The notes beneath the pieces are model-generated. The model did not search any database, was not told the DNA's origin, and saw only the letters and a program-made list of their open reading frames with translations. The position numbers were made by a program, and so were the translations under genes. DNA of 64,000 bases, from positions 32,001-96,000 of the IMG/VR virus record IMGVR_UViG_3300033146_004128; one strand, given 5' to 3'. This document shows, piece by piece, positions 31,363 to 62,826 of this stretch (within the stretch, counting starts at the first letter, position 1; every line of letters starts with the position of its first letter). The DNA comes from a virus.

Positions 31363-32466
31363 ATGAATAAAGATCCAAGAACGTTGAAAGATCTAGTAGA
31401 CAATGCAAATGAGGGCTACTCAATGTCTGTGTTTGGTGAGACAAAGTTCTCTGAAGATGACATCTATAGAGTAAAAGCTGGTGGGTTCAAAAAGACGAAA
31501 GAGAATGTGTATAAGTGGTGGGCGAACGGAAGTTGGATTCTTGCCAGCAAGGCAATGAAAAGAATATCTGAACTGTTCATTATAGATGGCGCTGGGTTTA
31601 AAGCTGTAACAGGCGAGACTCTCACGGCTGAGATAGCGAGACGGAGTAGGATACCGCAACCTTCTGCAGTAGCATCGGCTAGATACAATAGTACAAAGTG
31701 GACCAAGGGTGTAGCAGCAGAGTTTCGTAACGAAGTCAAAGTGTACAAGCAAGTGAGCAAGAAGAATCATGCACAGGTATTGTACGAGAAGTTATCTAAT
31801 ATGATAGAGGATACATACCAAGCACCTATGATAGTGCCTGAGTTCACAACTGGTACAATCTCATCAATATGTGATCTCATAGCAGTCAATGATAAAGACA
31901 TAGAAGCATTTGAGATAAAGAGTAAGGCAGACACACTTAAGAGACTAAGGAAGCAAGTGTCTGACTATAAGATATATGCAGATAAAGTGTGGGTTGTAAT
32001 AGACAAGAAACTTACAGACAAACTCTATGACTGGATGGAAGACAACCCTGACATATCTCCTGGAGTTGGTATAATCATATATGATGGAGATCACATGAAT
32101 GTGGTCAGAGAGGCAGAGAAGAATATTGTCCAGACAAACTATCTTGACATGCTGTGGTCGATAGAGAAGGAAAAGATACTGTATGGGCTTGGTCTATCTA
32201 CATCTGCAACTACAGTAGAAGGCACAAGGGACCAAAGAATATCATCAGTATGCCTCAATGCAGATCACAGAATATCTTCAATATCTAAAACAGTATTATT
32301 GTCAAGGCTCCGTAATTTTGCAAGAGGGAGGCATCCATCTTCACCAAAATACTCTGTAAACGATTGTGCCGGAACTATCTCGCTCACCCTGCTTCAGGTT
32401 GTAGTATATGGAGAACCAGTATTAGATGGAGAGATGAAATCAAGTGGTGGCTGCTCTATACAATAA
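31363..32466 (+). CDS. Sce7726-family PD-(D/E)xK nuclease-like protein with N-terminal extension
   Basis: ICDLIAVN..IEAFEIKSKADTLKRLRKQVSDYKIYADKVWVV. Confidence 0.8.
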   Translation: MNKDPRTLKDLVDNANEGYSMSVFGETKFSEDDIYRVKAGGFKKTKENVYKWWANGSWILASKAMKRISELFIIDGAGFKAVTGETLTAEIARRSRIPQPSAVASARYNSTKWTKGVAAEFRNEVKVYKQVSKKNHAQVLYEKLSNMIEDTYQAPMIVPEFTTGTISSICDLIAVNDKDIEAFEIKSKADTLKRLRKQVSDYKIYADKVWVVIDKKLTDKLYDWMEDNPDISPGVGIIIYDGDHMNVVREAEKNIVQTNYLDMLWSIEKEKILYGLGLSTSATTVEGTRDQRISSVCLNADHRISSISKTVLLSRLRNFARGRHPSSPKYSVNDCAGTISLTLLQVVVYGEPVLDGEMKSSGGCSIQ

Positions 32467-38105: not shown

Positions 38106-39935
38106 ATGGGATCAACGTTTAGTGGAAAATTATACGACAGAAGGTTTATGGGTAAGTATAATAACCTATCCAGTGTATACGCAGACATTCTGCCAAATGA
38201 TATCAAGGAAGTCATACAGTGGTCAGAGTTCATTGTAGCAAACGTACCTACTGTAGCATCAGCATTGGACAAGATGTCAAGTGTTGCCATTACAGCTCTA
38301 CAGTATATGACGTCAGACCTTACAGAGATGTCTTCGACAGACGCTAAGTCATGGAAGAATATCCTTGAAGAAGAAATGGACATAGAAGAGAAGCTACAAG
38401 AGATAGGGTTCAACTATCTTCTTAACGGTAACGTATTCCTATCTGTGTTCTTCCCAGTACATAGAACTGTTACATGCATGAAGTGCAAGACTTCACTGTC
38501 ACAGGAGAGATTCTCTTCAGTAAGCAAACTGAAGCCAGAGATGGAAGAGATGCTAGTGCAGAACAATGGTAAGAGAGACGGAAAGAAGATGCCAGGAGAG
38601 AAACAGCACTCAAAGAAGAAGGTGTTGGTATTCAAGGGTGCTTGTCCTGCCTGTGCATCAAAGTCAATATTCACCATACAGGACATAAAGGTGAAGAATA
38701 TGCAAGGGGTAAATGTTGTTAACTGGCCTGTGAACAGTATGAACTTCGTATCTGACAACATCACAGGTAGGAGTACATATTACTACAAGATGCCAAACTC
38801 AACAAAGAAGATGATCACTTCAGGGTTCCTTGACATGCTATTCCATCAGCCATTAGATATGATAGAGTCAGCAGTAAACAATACAGCAGTAAAGTTTGAT
38901 CAGGATAAGATTCTACATATAAAGAGAAAGAAGATGTCCGGGACAAACACAGGATGGGGAATGCCTATACTTACCTCATCGATACCAGAGATGATCTCTC
39001 TACTCTTGCTTAGAAAGTCTCAAGAGAGAATACTATCGGATATGATATTCCCGTTACGAGGATTGTCACCAAGGGCAGCAGGGTCTGATGGTAACGCAGT
39101 GTACAACTTCATGTCCGGAAGTGACCTGACGAAGAAGGTAGAGGCTATTCTGATGCAACATAAGAACAATCCTACCTCTGTAAAGTTCTTCCCTATACCT
39201 CTAGACCAAGTGAATGCATTCGGAGAGGGTAAGGCACTCAACCTAAGCGAAGAGATAGACCAGATATCTACAATGATTATGACTTCTATTGGTGTACCTA
39301 TTGAGTTCGTAAAAGGTGGTCTTGGATATACAGCTGCCGGTGCATCTATTAGAGTGCTTGAAAACCAGTTGATGGGACTAACAAACTCTATGGAGAAGGT
39401 AGCAAACTTTGTAGCCAAGCAGATAGCAACATTCACAGATAAGAAACAGGTAAGGATTAAGATTACTCCATTCAGAATCATCGATGACCTTGCAGAGAAG
39501 CAAATCTTACTTCAAATGTACCAAGGACAGAAAGTATCAGATCACACTATGGCATCTATGTTCAAGCTCGATGCGAAGACAGAGAACGACAGAATGGAAG
39601 AGGAAGCAAAAGCAGGTGCAAGAACACAGGCTGCTGTGCAAGAGTATATGCAGAACATATCTCAGAACCTCGAAGAGAAGGCAAAGACAGAGGCTATGCT
39701 ATCTCAGAGTTCTACTCAGCAAGTCAATCAACAAGCTATCATGCAAGAGGCAGATCAGATGGCAGCACAGTTACAGCAGATGGAATCCGGGCAGCGTAAG
39801 TCAGAGATGGATCGTCTTCAGAAAGAGAACTGGCTATTATATGTTGCTACTAAGGAACGCATGGAGTTCAATGGTCGCAAGGACGCTACACAGGCTGCGC
39901 AACAACAACAAGCTGAACAGCAAGGAGGAATGTAA
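38106..39935 (+). CDS. portal protein-like, with CxxC..CxxC insertion
   Basis: VPTVASALDKM, NYLLNGNVF, KILHIK..S...GWGMPIL, long helical Q-rich C-terminus. Confidence 0.65.
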   Translation: MGSTFSGKLYDRRFMGKYNNLSSVYADILPNDIKEVIQWSEFIVANVPTVASALDKMSSVAITALQYMTSDLTEMSSTDAKSWKNILEEEMDIEEKLQEIGFNYLLNGNVFLSVFFPVHRTVTCMKCKTSLSQERFSSVSKLKPEMEEMLVQNNGKRDGKKMPGEKQHSKKKVLVFKGACPACASKSIFTIQDIKVKNMQGVNVVNWPVNSMNFVSDNITGRSTYYYKMPNSTKKMITSGFLDMLFHQPLDMIESAVNNTAVKFDQDKILHIKRKKMSGTNTGWGMPILTSSIPEMISLLLLRKSQERILSDMIFPLRGLSPRAAGSDGNAVYNFMSGSDLTKKVEAILMQHKNNPTSVKFFPIPLDQVNAFGEGKALNLSEEIDQISTMIMTSIGVPIEFVKGGLGYTAAGASIRVLENQLMGLTNSMEKVANFVAKQIATFTDKKQVRIKITPFRIIDDLAEKQILLQMYQGQKVSDHTMASMFKLDAKTENDRMEEEAKAGARTQAAVQEYMQNISQNLEEKAKTEAMLSQSSTQQVNQQAIMQEADQMAAQLQQMESGQRKSEMDRLQKENWLLYVATKERMEFNGRKDATQAAQQQQAEQQGGM

Positions 39936-55727: not shown

Positions 55728-58541
55728 ATGTATTTCAATTTACAAGGCAAAAAATTTAACGAATCAAGACTTAAGTGTATAGTTGACAAGACAAGATACT
55801 ACTGGCCACTAGACTATCACCTGAGTGGGCAATTCAGTACTGCAATCACAGGGCATAGAACAAAGTTCGAAGAGGTTGACGGAGTACACGCTCTGCATTT
55901 GGAAGCAGCAACATACGCATATCTTAATTCTTATGTTGGATTATTTATGTATGGTGCTGGCTGTGCGTACGGAGTGATGCGTGATGATGGGAATAGTGAT
56001 ACCGAGATGAGACTATTTGCAATTACACATGATTACAGATGGGGAGATGATGCAACTAAATTATCAGTAACTCTTCTTCCTGGAGACAGAAATGTGTTTA
56101 GAGTAAGAGCAAATGTAGATGGGGTAATGAAAAGTGTAGATACTATTGTTGAAAATTTTGACTCGAATAAGTGGTTTGAGTTGGCAGTTCAGTTTGAAGG
56201 AACAAGAGTAGAGCTACGCATCAATAACAAATCAGTAATGAATCATGATTTTGGACCTGGGGATCTACCAGCTACGTCATATTGTTACTTTGGAGGCAGA
56301 GAAAACTATAATGGTTTTTATTTGAGAGAGGTGTCCTTATTCCCGGAGATATTAAATGATGAAGAAATGGATACTCTACATGAATATAAAAATAAAATCA
56401 TAGATGAAGAGTTTAAAACCGATGATAGGTACGCAATGCTACCCGAAGGAAGAGTTCTTAGAGCTTACCCTTTTCAAAAAAATTCAAGAGACATGATAAC
56501 TGGGGATTATCTTACCTACGAAGGTAGCCTAAGCGGCTTTGTTGTTGATACAAAATACTGTAGATTTAACGGCGGCAAAATGGCCGTCAAGAACCTACCA
56601 ATAAATGACGACACAGAAGCTGTAACAATCTCGATGAGTCTAGGAAACCTATACAGGGGAGCATTATTTGGTATAGGCTCTCAGTATCTATACTTTAATT
56701 ATAATTACTATTTTGGGTTTAGTACCGGGAAAGGCGACGTGTATGGAGTAGCTCCTAACCCTATATATTACAAGAATTCCCATATAATAGTAGTGTTTAG
56801 GAAGGGAAGCTATGGCGATATCTATGTAGATGGAATAAAGCAGGAGTTGACGCACAAGGGGGCGATACCAGACTCAATAGTAAACACACTCGGCAACGAA
56901 CTAGTTGTGAATGGAAGAATTGGAACAACATCAGACAGTTCGTATGTTAATGCATACAATATGAAGATCATAGAAGGAGAGGTTACGGACGAAGAGGCAA
57001 TGGATCTCTTTAAGGAAGAGTGGCCAGAGAATAGAGAAGTTGGAAGTTACGTGAAGGCTATTCAAGGAGGCGAACTTGAATGTGGGGACTATACTGAAAA
57101 AGGATGCATTACCGCATCTACAGCATCTTCTGATATTGGGTTCTGGTCAAAGCATATTTTGGAAAAGGTAAAGAGTCATCCGTTTGCAGAATCAACAGCA
57201 GTAGATATTGTTAATGAGAAGGTATTCCAGATACTAAATGAGGTTTCTGACGGATCATCAATATTCAGTCTTGACATAGATGCACTCCCTGAGTTTATGT
57301 ACAGTATACATAATGGAGAGGCGGCACTAGTATCTTCTGAAGCAACACTTACCTATCTTAACAGCAGAAACGATATAAATATGGATAGTGTAAGATCAAT
57401 ATATGCAAGAATAGCGATAGATGACAATACTGTATTTGGATTTGGATCTTCATACCCTCGTGTACTGATAAAGAATAAAGTGATCATAATAGAGTGGGAC
57501 GATAGTGAATACCACAGGACAGCATATCCTATAAGTGGAGTCACGGATGGAGACTGGGCAGATGTAACAATAGTTTTCTCTGTGACAGGAGTAGATCATG
57601 ATAGAGTAGTTGTTAACGGTGACACAATATATAGGGATTATTCTCTATATGCAGAACAGCTAGCATTGCTCCTAAAAGAAAGATCCGGGAAGATCGATAT
57701 TGGATCATGCAAAGTAGGCTCTGAAGAATATGTTCCTAACGCAAGAATATCAAGACTTGAAATATTCTGTACCGGGATGGGTCTCAAGAATATAGAGAAT
57801 ATAGTGTCAGGACTAGAATATAATCACGGAATGAGCAAAGATTTGATACCTGAAAGCAAGATATATATGGATGGAGAAAATATATTTGGAATGTTCAAAG
57901 GGCTTCTACTTCTTCCATATTCGTCAAGAAATAGTCCGTACTGGGAACATGAGCCAGTTGAAGCAATAGCGGGAGAGATACCTGTCCTTGCAGGAATACG
58001 TGCCTTTGATAGACCAAATAAGATAAGAGATATTTCGATAGGGAAAGCTACATTAAATGGTGCATATCGCAAGGTTAACCCACACATTGGGAACTATGCA
58101 ATAACTGGAAACTATGGCGGTAGCATTTCTATTACGGAAAACAATCTTACCCCAAATAAAGATGTGTATGTATATATGGACTTAATAATTTGTGAGTATT
58201 TCTATCTCTATAATTTAACAGTCAGAGTGACTGTAGGCACAAGAAGTTTTGTTATAGAGCCTCCAGTATATAATGGCTATGGTATCGATAATATCGATAG
58301 CCTTCTTAGAACAATAGACGAGGTAGTAGATGTCAAGCCAACACCTATAAATTTAGAAAACTCCGGAAGATATTATGAAGTTGGAGAGATGATAGTCACA
58401 CTTAAAGTAAAGGCAAATACAGGACCAGACGGAAATGTGTATATGCAGACAAAGCTAATATCTGGAAAAACTGAATACTATGGTGCCATAGGACTATCTA
58501 ATGTGTCAGTATGCGACATAGAAGATCCACAGCAGAAATAG
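55728..58541 (+). CDS. LamG/concanavalin-A-like domain protein (about three domains), putative receptor-binding protein
   Basis: Three W/H.x.V.F...YVDG/ING...+GG...I.E+.IF...L...E patterns. Confidence 0.7.
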   Translation: MYFNLQGKKFNESRLKCIVDKTRYYWPLDYHLSGQFSTAITGHRTKFEEVDGVHALHLEAATYAYLNSYVGLFMYGAGCAYGVMRDDGNSDTEMRLFAITHDYRWGDDATKLSVTLLPGDRNVFRVRANVDGVMKSVDTIVENFDSNKWFELAVQFEGTRVELRINNKSVMNHDFGPGDLPATSYCYFGGRENYNGFYLREVSLFPEILNDEEMDTLHEYKNKIIDEEFKTDDRYAMLPEGRVLRAYPFQKNSRDMITGDYLTYEGSLSGFVVDTKYCRFNGGKMAVKNLPINDDTEAVTISMSLGNLYRGALFGIGSQYLYFNYNYYFGFSTGKGDVYGVAPNPIYYKNSHIIVVFRKGSYGDIYVDGIKQELTHKGAIPDSIVNTLGNELVVNGRIGTTSDSSYVNAYNMKIIEGEVTDEEAMDLFKEEWPENREVGSYVKAIQGGELECGDYTEKGCITASTASSDIGFWSKHILEKVKSHPFAESTAVDIVNEKVFQILNEVSDGSSIFSLDIDALPEFMYSIHNGEAALVSSEATLTYLNSRNDINMDSVRSIYARIAIDDNTVFGFGSSYPRVLIKNKVIIIEWDDSEYHRTAYPISGVTDGDWADVTIVFSVTGVDHDRVVVNGDTIYRDYSLYAEQLALLLKERSGKIDIGSCKVGSEEYVPNARISRLEIFCTGMGLKNIENIVSGLEYNHGMSKDLIPESKIYMDGENIFGMFKGLLLLPYSSRNSPYWEHEPVEAIAGEIPVLAGIRAFDRPNKIRDISIGKATLNGAYRKVNPHIGNYAITGNYGGSISITENNLTPNKDVYVYMDLIICEYFYLYNLTVRVTVGTRSFVIEPPVYNGYGIDNIDSLLRTIDEVVDVKPTPINLENSGRYYEVGEMIVTLKVKANTGPDGNVYMQTKLISGKTEYYGAIGLSNVSVCDIEDPQQK

Positions 58542-58547
58542 TTTCTG

Positions 58548-58556
58548 TGCTATAAT
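58548..58556 (+). promoter_or_regulatory. extended -10 TGCTATAAT upstream of the RNA polymerase gene
   Basis: 22 nt before ATG 58579, AGGA SD follows. Confidence 0.7.
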
Positions 58557-58578
58557 ATGATAAAAATAGGATATATTT

Positions 58579-61500
58579 ATGACAAGTCTTAACAGGGATC
58601 ACAATGAGATAAATGAAGCTATTCACAATGAGATAGTTAAGGCTTTCGAGGGAAGAAAGGTAGAGGGAAAGACAAAGACTCTTGAGTACTCCAATGTGAC
58701 AGGAGCAAAAGCAGACATGTCATACCGAAAGCTAACAGATGCAATAAACTCAGGTGGAACAATAGCTAGAAAATATAAAGCTGATGTTACGATAAGAGAT
58801 AACGAGACCGGTAAAGTACTTGATAAGAAGAGTGGTGTACATATAGGGGAGACTCCAATTTACACAAAGAAGGGTGGGTTGGTTGTTGACGGGAATACAT
58901 ACAACCTTCCTAGCCAGATAAGACTTAAGCCTGGTGCGTATACTCTCAACAAGGCAAATGGCGATGTTGAGACTATGATGAACGTAAAGAACGGAAGAGG
59001 TATGAAGCTTGTATCTCCTCAGGACAAAGATGATGTAAAATTGCAGATAGGTTCAAGACAGTTTAATCCTCTTGATGTCGCAAAGATACTTGGTGCAACG
59101 GATAAGGAATTGTCATCAAACATAGGTAAAGATGTTGCTGCTCACTTAAATAAGAAGTCGAATGTTGAAGGAACAGCACTTAAGCTATCTCAGACCCTTG
59201 GGCTTGTCGGTCCAGACATAACACCTCCACACAAAGAAGTGATATCAAATCTACGAGATTATTTTGGAAAGACTGAGCTAGATACAAGCGTAACTACTCA
59301 TACACTTGGAAGGGCAATAGATAAGATTGATAAAGATGCGATAATGCTTGGTATCAAAAGGAATGTTGCTGTCAAGAGAGGGACAGAAGAGGAAGATGAC
59401 AAAGAAAACCTAATGTTCAAGAAGATTATCCCTCCAGAGAAACTTATGGTAGAGGGTGTAAAGAGGGACCTAATGAAGCCAGAGGCAAGAATGAAAGGTC
59501 TTCTGAATAACCCATTTAACCATGCAAGCATAACAGAGGTTCTTTCTGAGCCTACATTGAAGCATGCAGCAAAGAAGTTTGTGACAACAAGTGCGATCTC
59601 AAGAATGCCTGAAGAGTACAATCCATTACATACATTGCAAGGGAGTAGTGATATAACTCCATTGGGAGAAGGCGGTATAACATCTACCGAGATGATAACA
59701 CCATCTGTAAGGTCACTACACCTATCACAGCTTGGATTTATAGACCCTATAAAGTCTCCAGAGGGTGCAAACACTGGAGTCACATTAAGTACGACTCACG
59801 GGGCTTATATAGACGACAAGGGTAATGCTGCCATGAAGGTTAAGAACTTAAAGTCTGGGAAGATTGAGACAAAGACTGTGGCAGACCTATGGGACAAGAA
59901 GATAGCGTTCCCTGATCCAAACAAAAAAGGAGAGGTTGGCATAAGACACAAGAGCGATATCAGTGTAGGCAAGATGAAAGATGCTGACTATCAGATAACG
60001 CACTCTGAGAATATGTATGGGCCGGCTATGAACTCTCTTGGAATAATAAGTTCAAATGACCCAACCAGAAACCTTATGGCATCAAAGCATGTCATGCAAG
60101 CACTTCCTCTTGTTGATGGCGATGCTAACCCGGTAAGTCTGCTTGGAGCAAATGGAAAGAGTATGCTAGCAAACATAGCATCGAAGCACTTGCCTACTGC
60201 GAGTGTTTCCGGGACTGTTACAAGGGTTGATACTAGAGCTGGGAAGATACACTATAAAGATTCGTCTGGAAAAGAACACAACAGTGACTACGCTATATCT
60301 CCAATGCAATTAAATACAAAGACTTTCATACAGCATTCTCCTATAGTTAAAGCAGGAGACAAAGTAGAGGCAGGACAGGCTCTCGCTGATTCAAACTTCT
60401 CTAAGGGTGGAGAATTGGCCATAGGAAAGAATCTTAGAACAGCATGGATGATGTACCCAGGTACAAGAAATGATGCATTCGTATTGTCTGAGTCTGCAGC
60501 TAAAAAGATGACATCGGTACACTCTTCAAAGTTTGATATAGATGGGACAAAAGGTACGATACTGGATAAGAAGAAGTTTGCAGCCATGTTCCCAGAGGTT
60601 GTTAAGAAGATAAGCCTTGACAAATATGATGACAGGGGGATAATTCTTCCTGGTCAGACAGTGGCTAAAGATGAACCAATCGTTCTAGGCATGAAAAAGA
60701 TGGATCCATCAGAGGTCAGATTTGCAAATGACAAAGTAAAAAAATTACTATATGGCGGAATGGCACCGGTTATGCAAAAATGGAAGGGAGACAATTCAGC
60801 AACCATATCTCATGTCACAACCAAAGGATCCCAGCATAGAGTTATTGCTCAGTACAAGGCAGAGATGAAGACTGGAGATAAGCTTGCAGGTAGATCTGGA
60901 AACAAAGGTATTATCTCAGCTGTTATCCCAGACAAGGAGATGCCTAGAGATGAGAATGGAAAGCCTATAGAGCTTATACTTGGTGGTGCTGGTGTTAACT
61001 CAAGACAGAACCCTGCTCAGATCATAGAAGCTCAACTTACGGAGGTAGCAAAGAAGACAGGGAAGAAGTACGTACTTCCTCACTACACTCATGATGATCT
61101 TCATATATTTGCAAACAACGAGGCAAAGAAGAACAATGTGAACATGTATCATGAAATATACGACCCTGTAAGAAAGACCAAATTGAAGAATAAGGTATTT
61201 GTGGCAGACTACAATGTAATGAAGTTGTTCAAGCAGGGAGAGGGGACATACTCAGCAACAGGTCATGGCCCGGTTGACTCATTGAACCAACCGAAGAAAG
61301 GAGGAAAAGAGTCTGCGGCATCGATATCTAATATGGAGATAAACTCTCTATTGTCACATGACGCAAGAGACTTCCTCAAAGAGGTTGGAACAGTAAAATC
61401 ACAGAGAAACCAAAAGTGGTTCTCTGCATTTGAGTCAGGAGCTATACCGCCTGCACCTGAGAAGAAGTCTGCTAGGGACAATTTTCATGGGCTTCTGAAC

Positions 61501-62826
61501 CAACTCAACATATCAGTGAGAGAGGACGGAACAAGTAAACACATAGTACCTCTAACGGATAAAGATATAGTAAGGAAAAGTAGTGGTAAAATTATTGAGC
61601 CGTATGGTCTTAAGCGTAATACTCTGGATGCTGTCAGTGGCGGCTTTTATGACACTAGTGTATTTGGTGGACATGGTGAAAACTTCGGTCACATAGATCT
61701 TGGATCACATATCATTAACCCTCTATACAAAAAGCCAGTGGCGGCTATGATGGGTACCACAGAAAAAGGTCTAGATAAGATGATGGAGTCAGAGGGCATA
61801 TCAAACATATACAAAAAGATAAGTGGCTCAAGACTAAAGTCAACAGTGAATAGGTTAAAGAAAGACATAGAGAAGACTAAAGATACATCAAAAATAGACA
61901 GAAGCATGAAGGCGATAAAGGCTCTAAGAAAGATAGATAGTCTTGGAGATAACCCTGCAGACGTTATGTTTATGTCAAAAGTTCCGGTATTGCCTGTGAA
62001 GATGAGACCAATATCTAAACTTCCAGACGGCAGTATTATCGAGCATGATGTAAATCATCACTATGCGAACATAATAAGGGCGTCAAATTCTTTACAGAGA
62101 GCAAATGAATCCGATACTCCGGCACCAATAAAGAACAGACTTCATAGAGAGCTACAGGACCATGTTGGGGCAATGTACGGAACAAACAAATCTCCTGATC
62201 CAAAGATGGAGAGAAAAGAGGTCAAGAGCGTAATGGATGTTGTGGCCGGCTCAAACCCAAAGACATCTTTTTGGCATCAAAAGATACTTAAGAATAAGGT
62301 TTTTGGATCAGGTAGAGCTGTAATTGTTCCACACATAAAGACTATGAATATGGACCAAGTAGAGATACCTAAGTATGTAGCATGGAAAGCGTTTGAGCCT
62401 CATATAACAAGACGCATGTCTCAGATGGGTATACCTAATGATATGGCGAAAGACATGATTGACAAGAAGAACGAGACAGCAACCAATGTTCTGCATAGCG
62501 TTATGAAGGAGGTTCCGGTTGTTATAAACAGAGCACCTGCTCTTCATAAGCACAATATGACAGGACACTACGCAAAGATATCATCCGGAAATACAATGCA
62601 TATACCTCCTGAGATAGAGAATGGTCAAAATGCAGACTACGACGGAGATCAACTTGCAGTACATGTTCCTCTTGGGCATGCTGCAATAAAGGATGTTAAG
62701 ACAAAGCTTATGGCGTCAAAGCAGTTGTTTACTGATACGTCTAAGAATGGTCTGACAATGGGAATAGACTTGGATCCTTTTATAGGATTCTATGATGCTA
62801 CAAAACATAAGAATGGTAAAAAGTAA
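58579..62826 (+). CDS. rpoBC: phage two-barrel DNA-directed RNA polymerase: beta fused to the N-terminal (catalytic) part of beta'
   Basis: Beta motifs: GETP.YT..GG..VDG, SPEGANTG, LMASKHVMQALPL, GDKLAGRSGNKG, NSRQN. Beta' motifs: FGHIDL, VPVLP..MRP, GRAVIVP, NRAPALH, NADYDGD. Confidence 0.95.
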   Translation: MTSLNRDHNEINEAIHNEIVKAFEGRKVEGKTKTLEYSNVTGAKADMSYRKLTDAINSGGTIARKYKADVTIRDNETGKVLDKKSGVHIGETPIYTKKGGLVVDGNTYNLPSQIRLKPGAYTLNKANGDVETMMNVKNGRGMKLVSPQDKDDVKLQIGSRQFNPLDVAKILGATDKELSSNIGKDVAAHLNKKSNVEGTALKLSQTLGLVGPDITPPHKEVISNLRDYFGKTELDTSVTTHTLGRAIDKIDKDAIMLGIKRNVAVKRGTEEEDDKENLMFKKIIPPEKLMVEGVKRDLMKPEARMKGLLNNPFNHASITEVLSEPTLKHAAKKFVTTSAISRMPEEYNPLHTLQGSSDITPLGEGGITSTEMITPSVRSLHLSQLGFIDPIKSPEGANTGVTLSTTHGAYIDDKGNAAMKVKNLKSGKIETKTVADLWDKKIAFPDPNKKGEVGIRHKSDISVGKMKDADYQITHSENMYGPAMNSLGIISSNDPTRNLMASKHVMQALPLVDGDANPVSLLGANGKSMLANIASKHLPTASVSGTVTRVDTRAGKIHYKDSSGKEHNSDYAISPMQLNTKTFIQHSPIVKAGDKVEAGQALADSNFSKGGELAIGKNLRTAWMMYPGTRNDAFVLSESAAKKMTSVHSSKFDIDGTKGTILDKKKFAAMFPEVVKKISLDKYDDRGIILPGQTVAKDEPIVLGMKKMDPSEVRFANDKVKKLLYGGMAPVMQKWKGDNSATISHVTTKGSQHRVIAQYKAEMKTGDKLAGRSGNKGIISAVIPDKEMPRDENGKPIELILGGAGVNSRQNPAQIIEAQLTEVAKKTGKKYVLPHYTHDDLHIFANNEAKKNNVNMYHEIYDPVRKTKLKNKVFVADYNVMKLFKQGEGTYSATGHGPVDSLNQPKKGGKESAASISNMEINSLLSHDARDFLKEVGTVKSQRNQKWFSAFESGAIPPAPEKKSARDNFHGLLNQLNISVREDGTSKHIVPLTDKDIVRKSSGKIIEPYGLKRNTLDAVSGGFYDTSVFGGHGENFGHIDLGSHIINPLYKKPVAAMMGTTEKGLDKMMESEGISNIYKKISGSRLKSTVNRLKKDIEKTKDTSKIDRSMKAIKALRKIDSLGDNPADVMFMSKVPVLPVKMRPISKLPDGSIIEHDVNHHYANIIRASNSLQRANESDTPAPIKNRLHRELQDHVGAMYGTNKSPDPKMERKEVKSVMDVVAGSNPKTSFWHQKILKNKVFGSGRAVIVPHIKTMNMDQVEIPKYVAWKAFEPHITRRMSQMGIPNDMAKDMIDKKNETATNVLHSVMKEVPVVINRAPALHKHNMTGHYAKISSGNTMHIPPEIENGQNADYDGDQLAVHVPLGHAAIKDVKTKLMASKQLFTDTSKNGLTMGIDLDPFIGFYDATKHKNGKK

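Follow-up and report, generated by a model that had tools for sequence, protein, structure and literature searches.

To our knowledge, the multisubunit RNA polymerases of cells all require an α (or α-like) platform that joins their two large subunits. In the RpoBC proteins of Helicobacter and Wolinella, β and then β′ follow each other head-to-tail in one polypeptide of ~2,500–2,900 aa, which contains the whole of β′ with all of its cellular domains and works with α and ω. In cyanobacteria and plastids, β′ comes as two polypeptides (γ/β′, encoded by rpoC1/rpoC2), with the division falling after the catalytic barrel. The polymerases encoded by phages of the phiKZ/AR9 type operate without α or ω; their β′ is split after the Mg-binding barrel, their β is in two to three pieces, and they occur as paralogous virion and non-virion sets with no sigma (PMC7598289). 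The mReC polymerases of large uncultured tailed phages have deep-branching, bacterial-type β and β′, tabulated as separate proteins (1009–1563 aa and 915–1038 aa, respectively), and the part of that report on which we draw describes no fusion (Weinheimer and Aylward 2020; PMC7481178). We found no paper in the literature that describes a two-protein layout of the form β–β′N plus β′C.

The window analysed here is a stretch of 64,000 nucleotides (positions 32,001–96,000 of IMGVR_UViG_3300033146_004128) from a complete phage genome of 187,664 bp (~188 kb); window coordinates count from its first letter, and those marked 'genome' refer to the full record (Table 1). As the initial annotation had described, one open reading frame (P0001) carries β motifs followed by β′ motifs, all at the positions given there. 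Four Pfam domains, each exceeding its curated cut-off, are arranged in the order Rpb2_3 (PF04565, aa 345–407, E 1.4e-8), Rpb2_6 (PF00562, aa 541–908, E 3e-36), Rpb1_1 (PF04997, aa 1082–1224) and Rpb1_2 (PF00623, aa 1293–1374, E 1.3e-17). An RpoB is recognizable in the Rpb2_6 barrel with its GDK...GNKG lysines, plus Rpb2_3 (the fork), and the N-terminal half of β′ in Rpb1_1 and Rpb1_2 with the aspartate triad, which stands in NADYDGD as against NADFDGD. Residues D767, K768, K776, D1353, D1355 and D1357 are invariant among 25 aligned homologues. There is no cysteine along the entire 1415-aa chain. It is very probable that P0001 is the large chain of a bacterial-type multisubunit phage RNA polymerase that needs a separate β′-C partner.

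Table 1. Features of the fused polymerase chain, its upstream region and its putative partners
Feature	Location	Strand	Description and basis
Extended -10 promoter-like element TGCTATAAT	58548..58556	+	23 nt before P0001 ATG
Shine-Dalgarno-like AGGA	58568..58571	+	7 nt before P0001 ATG; read in sequence
β + β′-N fusion chain of phage RNA polymerase (P0001)	58579..62826	+	Single ORF, 1415 aa; start codon ATG (58579)
β part (aa 1-984)	58579..61530	+	Colinear with full-length bacterial RpoB to its last residues
GDKLAGRSGNKG, β double-psi-barrel motif with active-site lysines K768 and K776 (aa 766-777)	60874..60909	+	Sequence, homologue alignment
Fusion junction	61495..61587	+	Profile and homologue alignments
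β′-N part (aa 985-1415)	61531..62823	+	Clamp N-terminal region, clamp helices, Mg-binding double-psi barrel
β′ zinc-binding domain deletion site, between VFGG and HGENFGH	61666..61683	+	Profile alignment
Predicted clamp helices, coiled coil (aa ~1157-1200)	62047..62178	+	AF2 model, alignment
NADYDGD, catalytic Mg-binding aspartate triad (aa 1351-1357)	62629..62649	+	Sequence, homologue alignment
Sigma-like protein, 209 aa	genome 132026-132679	+	Match to Arash gp10
β′-C, 580 aa	genome 163416-165158	-	PF04998 match; bridge helix, trigger loop, four-Cys zinc site

The β part is complete but trimmed: PDB β chains align to aa 58–976 of P0001, and the family profile aligns residues 51–1340 (of 1342) of Salmonella RpoB and 46–1160 of S. 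aureus RpoB, with a shorter lobe region and none of the lineage-specific insertions present in enterobacterial RpoB. The alignment of RpoC to the same profile begins at residue 28, only ~11 positions past RpoB 1340; the fusion is therefore head-to-tail and nearly linkerless, and the seamless joining of β to the catalytic N-terminal part of β′ that had been proposed is borne out. At the junction, LNQLNISVREDG (aa 973–984), which corresponds to the RpoB end ...LLKEIRSLGINIELE, is directly followed by TSKHIVPLTDKDIVRKSSG (aa 985–1003), which corresponds to RpoC ...ASPDMIRSWSFG, with loss of the first ~27 residues of β′. Beyond it, E. coli β′ 179–514 aligns to aa 1068–1408, and the C-terminal end of P0001 lies at about residue 520 of Salmonella β′, ~58 residues beyond NADYDGD, so that β′ is represented by its catalytic first third. 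An AF2 model of β′-N (pLDDT 78.8) has bacterial β′ as its top Foldseek matches (E ~1e-24). Residues 65–96 of Salmonella β′ (32 residues with four Cys) have no counterpart in either the family profile or P0001. The clamp helices are represented by model helices 159–179 and 184–202 (model residue 1 being aa 999) in a region that aligns with Salmonella β′ ~260–310; these helices are the usual docking site for sigma region 2. Since a complete β is fused to the Mg-barrel part of β′, both double-psi barrels reside in one chain.

A fused frame could in principle arise from a frameshift, a missed stop or a chimeric assembly of adjacent rpoB-like and rpoC-like genes. We found no point in favour of such an artefact, the probability of which we consider negligible: the single fused ORF recurs, with identities ranging from 85% to 27%, in independent NCBI, ENA, JGI and Logan assemblies, as well as in finished genomes of cultured phages; the best 150 representatives all match in one stretch that spans the junction; the junction is nearly gapless among 25 aligned homologues; and neither a stop nor a frameshift was found there in any homologue. 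By this comparison of sequences, the fusion is neither a chance event nor an assembly artefact.

P0001 ends just past the Mg-binding barrel, so a full active centre requires pairing with β′-C, which the same genome encodes. PF00562, PF00623 and PF04998 each match the genome exactly once, PF04998 only in the 580-aa ORF, which aligns with C. thermocellum β′ 723–1084, a span that includes the bridge helix and trigger loop. Its only cysteines are at positions 213, 264, 271 and 274, and its trigger loop (...LILSAKH vs bacterial ...LTMRTFH) retains the His but has lost the Arg. As the bridge helix, trigger loop and second zinc site are in this other gene, the core consists of two chains (1,995 aa in total), and the description 'compact single-chain RNA polymerase' given in the initial annotation has to be withdrawn. 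The notion that P0001 alone might be a self-sufficient minimal polymerase, with no bridge-helix/trigger-loop half required, can draw on the fact that one chain contains all catalytic residues as well as both double-psi barrels, and on the precedent of YonO and crAss gp66, which are single-chain two-barrel enzymes (PMC7481178). We nevertheless regard it as very improbable, in view of the intact β′-C gene in the same genome, its conservation in Salmonella phage Arash and Vibrio phage D69, and its covalent attachment in 59 of 262 relatives; such conservation would be unexpected of a dispensable half. A point against the two-chain core is that the genes of its chains, which would have to be co-expressed, lie 68.6 kb apart on opposite strands.

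We searched the genome for α and ω with PF01000, PF01193 and PF01192 and obtained no match at E <= 1, with the proviso that Pfam can miss divergent proteins; control searches were positive in 14 of 14 genomes. P0001, which supplies a trimmed but complete β plus β′ ~28–520, very probably pairs with β′-C to form a two-chain core; in it, we hypothesize, the covalent β–β′ tether would substitute for the absent α-dimer assembly platform. A large and widespread phage family thus appears to dispense with the α platform by means of this tether. The enzyme is reduced to ~2,000 residues, compared with 2,749 for Salmonella β + β′, in two chains or, in relatives, one. With one or two genes and a small sigma to express, it would offer a simple system for work on assembly, on what the β′ zinc-binding domain does, and on how promoters are recognized.

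The closest cultured counterparts are in Salmonella phage Arash and Vibrio phages D69, D148 and D181, the fused chains of which share only 27–29% identity with P0001. Arash gp206 (OQ632216.1, 1525 aa) also unites the four Pfam domains in a single chain and is 29% identical across 94% of the query; as in the phage studied here, it is accompanied in its genome by a separate β′-C homologue (gp216, 30% identity) and a sigma-like protein. These phages and the one studied here also have their portal, large terminase, major capsid and ribonucleotide reductase genes in common. In database records, the Arash and Vibrio fused chains go by 'beta subunit' or 'hypothetical protein'; a fusion is nowhere mentioned in the Arash paper (PMC10585845). 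The existence of a cultured member, Arash, opens the family to bench testing.

A candidate for the small sigma is the 209-aa protein that matches Arash gp10 (phmmer E 1.9e-8). Arash gp10 clears the Sigma70_r3 cut-off with 35.7 bits; the protein here scores 23.5–24.6 bits, just below the 25.3-bit Pfam cut-off, and it matches the sigma F chain 1l0o_C at E 6e-4. Its homologues co-occur with those of the polymerase on the same contigs. A predicted complex of β′-N with the sigma-like protein scored 0.59 (best control 0.00), which gives the pairing weak support: of 80 solved complexes, 58 attained the pass mark, against 2 of 110 mismatched pairs, and scores <=0.60 comprise 7 of the 80 solved complexes plus both passing mismatches. 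The runs agree in >=25% of contacts, with a partner pLDDT of >=62. The pass may reflect a memory of solved sigma/β′ complexes.

The promoter-like element TGCTATAAT occupies part of the 37-nt gap between the stop codon of the upstream gene and the P0001 ATG. TGNTATAAT occurs 26 times in the genome, only ~4% of which is non-coding, and 11 of these sites are 18–51 nt upstream of start codons on the matching strand; 7-mers related to TGNTATAAT are the most enriched words of upstream regions. That same analysis of word enrichment in the genome's upstream regions found no separate early-promoter motif. We see about an even chance that the phage's own sigma-like protein sets promoter choice by selecting extended -10 promoters (TGnTATAAT, with no -35), including the one that precedes P0001; it might just as well act by redirecting the host polymerase. 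TGnTATAAT is a classical extended -10 element and is also the consensus for a host sigma-70 holoenzyme.

When and where the enzyme acts is approached here through Arash. Mass spectrometry of Arash virions assigned gp206 the most spectra of any protein, and both gp216 and gp10 were detected; among the other proteins listed for the virion are ribonucleotide reductase and kinases, and the authors of that study grant that abundant proteins may have been carried over (PMC10585845). By analogy, the chances that the polymerase studied here is packaged in the virion and injected at infection seem to us evenly balanced. A more ambitious proposal, which we put forward tentatively and consider rather unlikely in its entirety, is that an injected three-protein holoenzyme (β–β′N, β′C and the 209-aa sigma) would run phage transcription from extended -10 promoters, independently of the host polymerase; it would do so with no α, ω or β′ zinc-binding domain, the tether replacing the α-dimer platform. 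Were it true, the relatives of this phage would show that the whole core could be had as one gene encoding ~2,000 aa. Alternatively, the same two-chain core is not injected: host sigma-70 polymerase would read the TGnTATAAT promoters, that of P0001 among them, and the phage enzyme, produced in the course of infection, would take over middle or late transcription in the manner of a non-virion polymerase, an account that we find quite plausible while placing it somewhat short of an even chance. It fits with the occurrence of a classical extended -10 sequence before the polymerase gene itself, with a genome that holds one polymerase set rather than virion and non-virion sets, and with the possibility of carried-over abundant proteins in the Arash virion list. 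It sits less easily with the top spectrum count of gp206 alongside gp216 and the sigma gp10 in that list (PMC10585845), with the position of the P0001 gene in a same-strand block between a portal gene upstream and terminase and capsid genes downstream, or with the failure to find a separate early-promoter motif.

Set against the described systems, the layout is distinct from both of those named in the initial annotation. Helicobacter-type RpoBC needs its bridge helix, trigger loop and Rpb1_5 in-chain, whereas P0001 has a truncated β′ without these; phiKZ/AR9 enzymes differ in that this phage has one set, an intact fused β and a sigma-like gene, and the likeness to them (AR9, E 4e-6) is far below that to bacterial RNA polymerase (bacterial contigs, E 2e-41). 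Cyanobacterial γ (chain 8h3v_E) aligns to the β′-N part of P0001, but is a 625-aa protein unfused to β that reaches ~100 residues past the P0001 end point, and so the residue at which β′ is cut differs. The earlier idea of a distinct viral architecture with both barrels in one minimal chain survives as regards the barrels and the viral setting, but not as a property of this phage: the junction is common to at least 150 clusters at 50% identity, including Arash and the Vibrio phages, and, judged from these homologues, the two-protein layout is a common one among phages.

Recent acquisition, with later truncation, of a cellular fused rpoBC gene of the Helicobacter/Wolinella type would account for the order of β then β′, which is that of the cellular fusions. 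We hold this to be highly unlikely, for the β part has nearly equal scores (145–175 bits) with PDB RpoB chains from many groups of bacteria outside Campylobacterota, none of which stands out; cellular-type fused proteins (2,521–2,876 aa) score 92–172 bits vs 258–380 bits for family members. A long branch sets the family off from three cellular taxa. The protein scores about equally against bacterial RNA polymerases of many phyla and does not nest in one of them, a result of limited weight in a tree with three cellular taxa.

Family members differ in whether β′-C is attached. In 59 of the 262 relatives it is covalently joined, to give true single chains of ~2,000 aa, which P0001 is not; these full-length relatives (e.g., P0072, 2062 aa) have the same β-to-β′ junction and trimmed domains, and their C-terminus aligns end to end with β′-C (P0072 residues 1472–1890, 29% identity, E 2e-41). 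In a FastTree phylogeny, which has a weakly supported backbone and an outgroup of three cellular taxa, the split form is one large clade within a grade of full-length forms (5 changes vs 37 in shuffles); from these sequences, division after the barrel looks like the derived state and the ~2,000-aa single-chain β–β′ relatives look like the basal grade. The family would accordingly record a fission, from basal single chains to a clade split after the barrel, in which β′-C then drifts from an adjacent position (in D69 it lies 640 bp downstream, in Arash 4.8 kb) to 69 kb away on the other strand in the phage studied here; this record bears on the origin of split polymerases in cyanobacteria and phiKZ-like phages. 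In Vibrio phage D181, a homing endonuclease was found splitting the polymerase gene, which suggests a mechanism of gene splitting.

The 1415-residue fused chain P0001 is encoded by one ORF that opens with ATG, and its Pfam domains follow one another in the order Rpb2_3, Rpb2_6, Rpb1_1 and Rpb1_2; this succession of beta and then beta' agrees with the initial annotation, whose ORF and motif positions all proved exact. That annotation also described a compact single-chain RNA polymerase, and here the genome tells otherwise. In this source genome (187,664 bp, with direct terminal repeats and a completeness rating of 100%), of which the window covers positions 32001-96000, Rpb2_6, Rpb1_2 and Rpb1_5 give a single match each, and the Rpb1_5 match lies outside P0001, 68.6 kb downstream, in the separate 580-aa ORF for beta'-C. 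The latter aligns to residues 723-1084 of C. thermocellum beta' (E 1e-26), and its only four cysteines (213, 264, 271 and 274) correspond to the second zinc site of beta'. Because the bridge helix and trigger loop are both encoded in beta'-C, the active centre needs P0001 and beta'-C together; the "single-chain" title is thus wrong for this genome, although single-chain relatives do exist. As read from the sequences, the core is a pair of chains of 1,995 aa in total, compared with 2,749 aa for Salmonella beta plus beta'.

The same annotation called the fusion "seamless", and this wording is fair. We built a family profile from 25 homologues (27-85% identity) and aligned bacterial RpoB and RpoC proteins to it: at profile position 980 Salmonella RpoB has reached residue 1340 of its 1342, and at position 992 Salmonella RpoC begins with residue 28. 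Hence beta continues to its end, and ~11 positions later beta' takes over, short of only its first ~27 residues; the junction columns are nearly gap-free in 25 of 25 homologues. Trimming is evident elsewhere. The four-Cys zinc-binding domain at Salmonella beta' 65-96 (32 residues) has no counterpart in the family profile, nor does a second stretch at ~141-178, and P0001 contains no cysteine at all. The enterobacterial insertions of beta are likewise absent from the profile alignment, and a lobe region that occupies ~120 residues in S. aureus beta is represented by 25 profile positions. At its C-terminus, P0001 ends at about beta' residue 520, directly past the Mg-binding barrel.

Positions of the polymerase genes, their motifs and associated features
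Feature	Position	Strand	Remarks
P0001 ORF	window 58579-62826	+	1415 aa
Rpb2_3	aa 345-407 of P0001		Pfam, above curated cut-off
Rpb2_6	aa 541-908 of P0001		Pfam, E 3e-36, above curated cut-off
Beta motif GDKLAGRSGNKG	aa 766-777 of P0001		
Junction motif LNQLNISVREDG then TSKHIVPLTDKDIVRKSSG	aa 973-1003 of P0001		
Rpb1_1	aa 1082-1224 of P0001		Pfam, above curated cut-off
Rpb1_2	aa 1293-1374 of P0001		Pfam, E 1.3e-17, above curated cut-off
NADYDGD	aa 1351-1357 of P0001		nt 62629-62649
beta'-C ORF	genome 163416-165158	-	580 aa
Bridge helix	aa 178-200 of beta'-C		C. thermocellum beta' alignment
Trigger loop	aa 291-311 of beta'-C		C. thermocellum beta' alignment; catalytic His retained
TGCTATAAT	window 58548-58556	+	23 nt before P0001 ATG; AGGA between the two
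TGNTATAAT sites before start codons	window 32497, 47707, 50840, 54015, 58548	+	21-51 nt upstream
TGNTATAAT sites before start codons	window 30191, 28984, 27819	-	21-51 nt upstream
Portal homologue	window 38106-39935	+	matches Arash gp204, Vibrio D69 VPHD69_0259
937-aa protein	window 55728-58541	+	weak laminin-G/ConA-like match; directly upstream of P0001 gene
Sigma-like ORF, 209/217 aa	genome 132026-132679 (= L009:1026-1679)	+	outside window; Arash gp10 homologue
Cpn60/GroEL-like protein	genome 136766-138202	-	PF00118, E 6e-19; outside window
RCC1-repeat protein	genome 158610-160406	-	outside window
D181 interrupted locus	L021:3444-8958 = OZ196140.1 144071-149585		514-aa piece, two tiny ORFs, endonuclease gene, 1006-aa piece
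Homing endonuclease gene of D181 locus	L021:5270-5887		

The fusion recurs widely. By tblastn against phage records, gp206 of Salmonella phage Arash is the same fused chain (1525 aa, 29% identity over 94% of the query), annotated there as "beta subunit", and Vibrio phages D69, D148 and D181 carry it as a "hypothetical" protein; Arash also has portal, large terminase, major capsid, ribonucleotide reductase and beta'-C (gp216) genes in common with this phage. A word-indexed metagenome search with P0001 retrieved 429 proteins at E <= 0.001, and all 120 of those listed contain both Rpb2_6 (beta) and Rpb1 (beta') domains. In an exhaustive search with residues 551-1415, the best 150 representatives (of clusters at 50% identity, E < 1e-111) all align across the junction. 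Furthermore, an 85%-identical copy of P0001 in syntenic context is found on an independent 192-kb NCBI contig. So many independent relatives with the same junction indicate that the fusion is real, old and common to other phages. The layout has been present, unremarked, in public genomes, those of cultured phages included: the beta-beta'N fusion is undescribed in a jumbo-phage polymerase review, in jumbo-phage comparative genomics and in the papers on the mReC group (PMC7481178) and on Arash (PMC10585845).

Another aspect of this family is a second cut, between P0001 and beta'-C. When beta'-C was compared with 262 family proteins, it was in the same chain in 59, mostly of 1,950-2,150 aa, and absent from the chain in 203. 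In one of the former, P0072, which is identical in two independent assemblies, residues 1472-1890 of the joined chain align to beta'-C (E 2e-41). From this joined form onward the spacing of the two genes makes a series: 640 bp in Vibrio D69 (beta'-C downstream, same strand), 4.8 kb in Arash, and 68.6 kb, on opposite strands, in this phage. A FastTree phylogeny of 144 family members and three cellular beta+beta' concatenates places the split form in essentially one large clade (this phage, Arash and D69 among them) inside a full-length grade, with 5 parsimony changes of state compared with a mean of 37 for shuffled labels. Rooted on the cellular sequences, the tree gives full-length as the ancestral state; the outgroup is small and the backbone weakly supported in places, so that a change from full-length to split is no more than likely. 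We also note that the fused gene, a single ORF in the sister phage D69, is broken up inside its beta part in Vibrio D181 and D148; the D181 interruption looks like either a fission in progress or an endonuclease-carrying intron.

As to where this enzyme belongs, PDB RpoB chains from many bacterial groups all match the beta part at 145-175 bits, with no group standing out. An AlphaFold model of residues 999-1415 (pLDDT 78.8) matches beta' of E. coli, S. aureus, Pseudomonas, Vibrio, Clostridium and Bacillus at E ~1e-24, and no phage enzyme is among its best 50 structural matches. The AR9 and YerA41 polymerase subunits match P0001 far less strongly than bacterial subunits do, and membership of the phiKZ group is rejected. 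Nor is a recent cellular capture visible: no single bacterial group is favoured, and fused beta-beta' proteins of cellular type score far below P0001's family members. The sole result of a locus search with P0001 was a Treponema rpoB/rpoC pair of the ordinary kind, in separate ORFs, which gave no clue to the host and was reused as an outgroup. We do not equate the family with the mReC group, for which the supplementary-table entries consulted give separate beta and beta' proteins. P0001 and its relatives are a deep-branching phage lineage of bacterial type, and P0001 with beta'-C represents a genuine variant among phage multisubunit RNA polymerases, and a well-conserved one.

Searches of this genome for alpha (PF01000, PF01193) and omega (PF01192) gave no match at E <= 1, with positive controls in 14 of 14 genomes. 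For T7-type polymerases (PF00940) the result is uninformative, the control being positive in no genome. Phages that encode a multisubunit polymerase are generally described as lacking sigma factors. The Sigma70_r2 and Sigma70_r4 profiles have no match in the genome, and a sigma-like gene was detected only through Sigma70 region 3 and homology to Arash gp10 (E 1.9e-8). Arash gp10 is above the Sigma70_r3 cut-off at 35.7 bits; this phage's own protein, at 23.5-24.6 bits, falls just short of that cut-off (25.3), and it matches chain 1l0o_C of sigma F (E 6e-4). Homologues of it share long contigs with homologues of the fused polymerase. In complex prediction, beta'-N (residues 999-1415) and the sigma-like protein scored 0.59 (best control 0.00), in a range, <= 0.60, where the mark was reached by only 7 of 80 solved complexes plus both passing mismatches; overall, 58 of the 80 and 2 of 110 mismatches reached it. 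The runs share at least 25% of contacts, with a partner pLDDT of at least 62. This prediction lends weak support to a pairing, and the pass may come from the predictor's memory, because sigma/beta' complexes have already been solved.

Extended -10-like TGNTATAAT sites number 26 in the genome, of which 11 precede a matching-strand start codon by 18-51 nt, in a genome only ~4% non-coding; eight of the 11 are those tabulated from the window. In 87 upstream regions no words are more enriched than the 7-mers of this type, and no second, phage-specific motif emerged beyond TATAAT-type words. No -35 element is evident at the TGNTATAAT sites, and scanning the surroundings of the P0001 gene for generic sigma-70 promoters and terminators gave background levels. 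The TGNTATAAT sites could be read either by the host holoenzyme or by the phage polymerase together with the phage sigma.

When 28 neighbouring or large ORFs were scanned with PHROGs and Pfam, the few matches were the weak laminin-G/ConA-like one upstream, the Cpn60-like protein and the RCC1-repeat protein, so the module of the polymerase gene is not assignable by annotation. The gene belongs to an extended block of genes on one strand, in which the portal gene lies upstream and large ORFs, terminase and capsid genes downstream; the portal gene of Arash and of D69 is directly upstream of the fused gene, whereas here the two are 19 kb apart. In mass spectrometry of Arash virions, gp206 had the top spectrum count, and gp216 and the sigma gp10 were detected too; the authors allow for carry-over of abundant infection proteins (PMC10585845). 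By analogy, we would give roughly equal weight to the polymerase being carried in the virion and injected, and to its not being so. The 937-aa protein holds the same position beside the polymerase in the 85%-identical relative (L018). Nearly all other large ORFs of the genome are without a Pfam or PHROG match.

Some family members carry extra modules in or beside the polymerase chain (P0065, P0071, P0058 and P0088 are examples of module-bearing proteins): among them are inteins with LAGLIDADG endonucleases, GNAT acetyltransferases, an M23 peptidase (PF01551) and a SET domain (PF00856). In a clade of ~50 family representatives the chain is extended N-terminally by ~350 aa.
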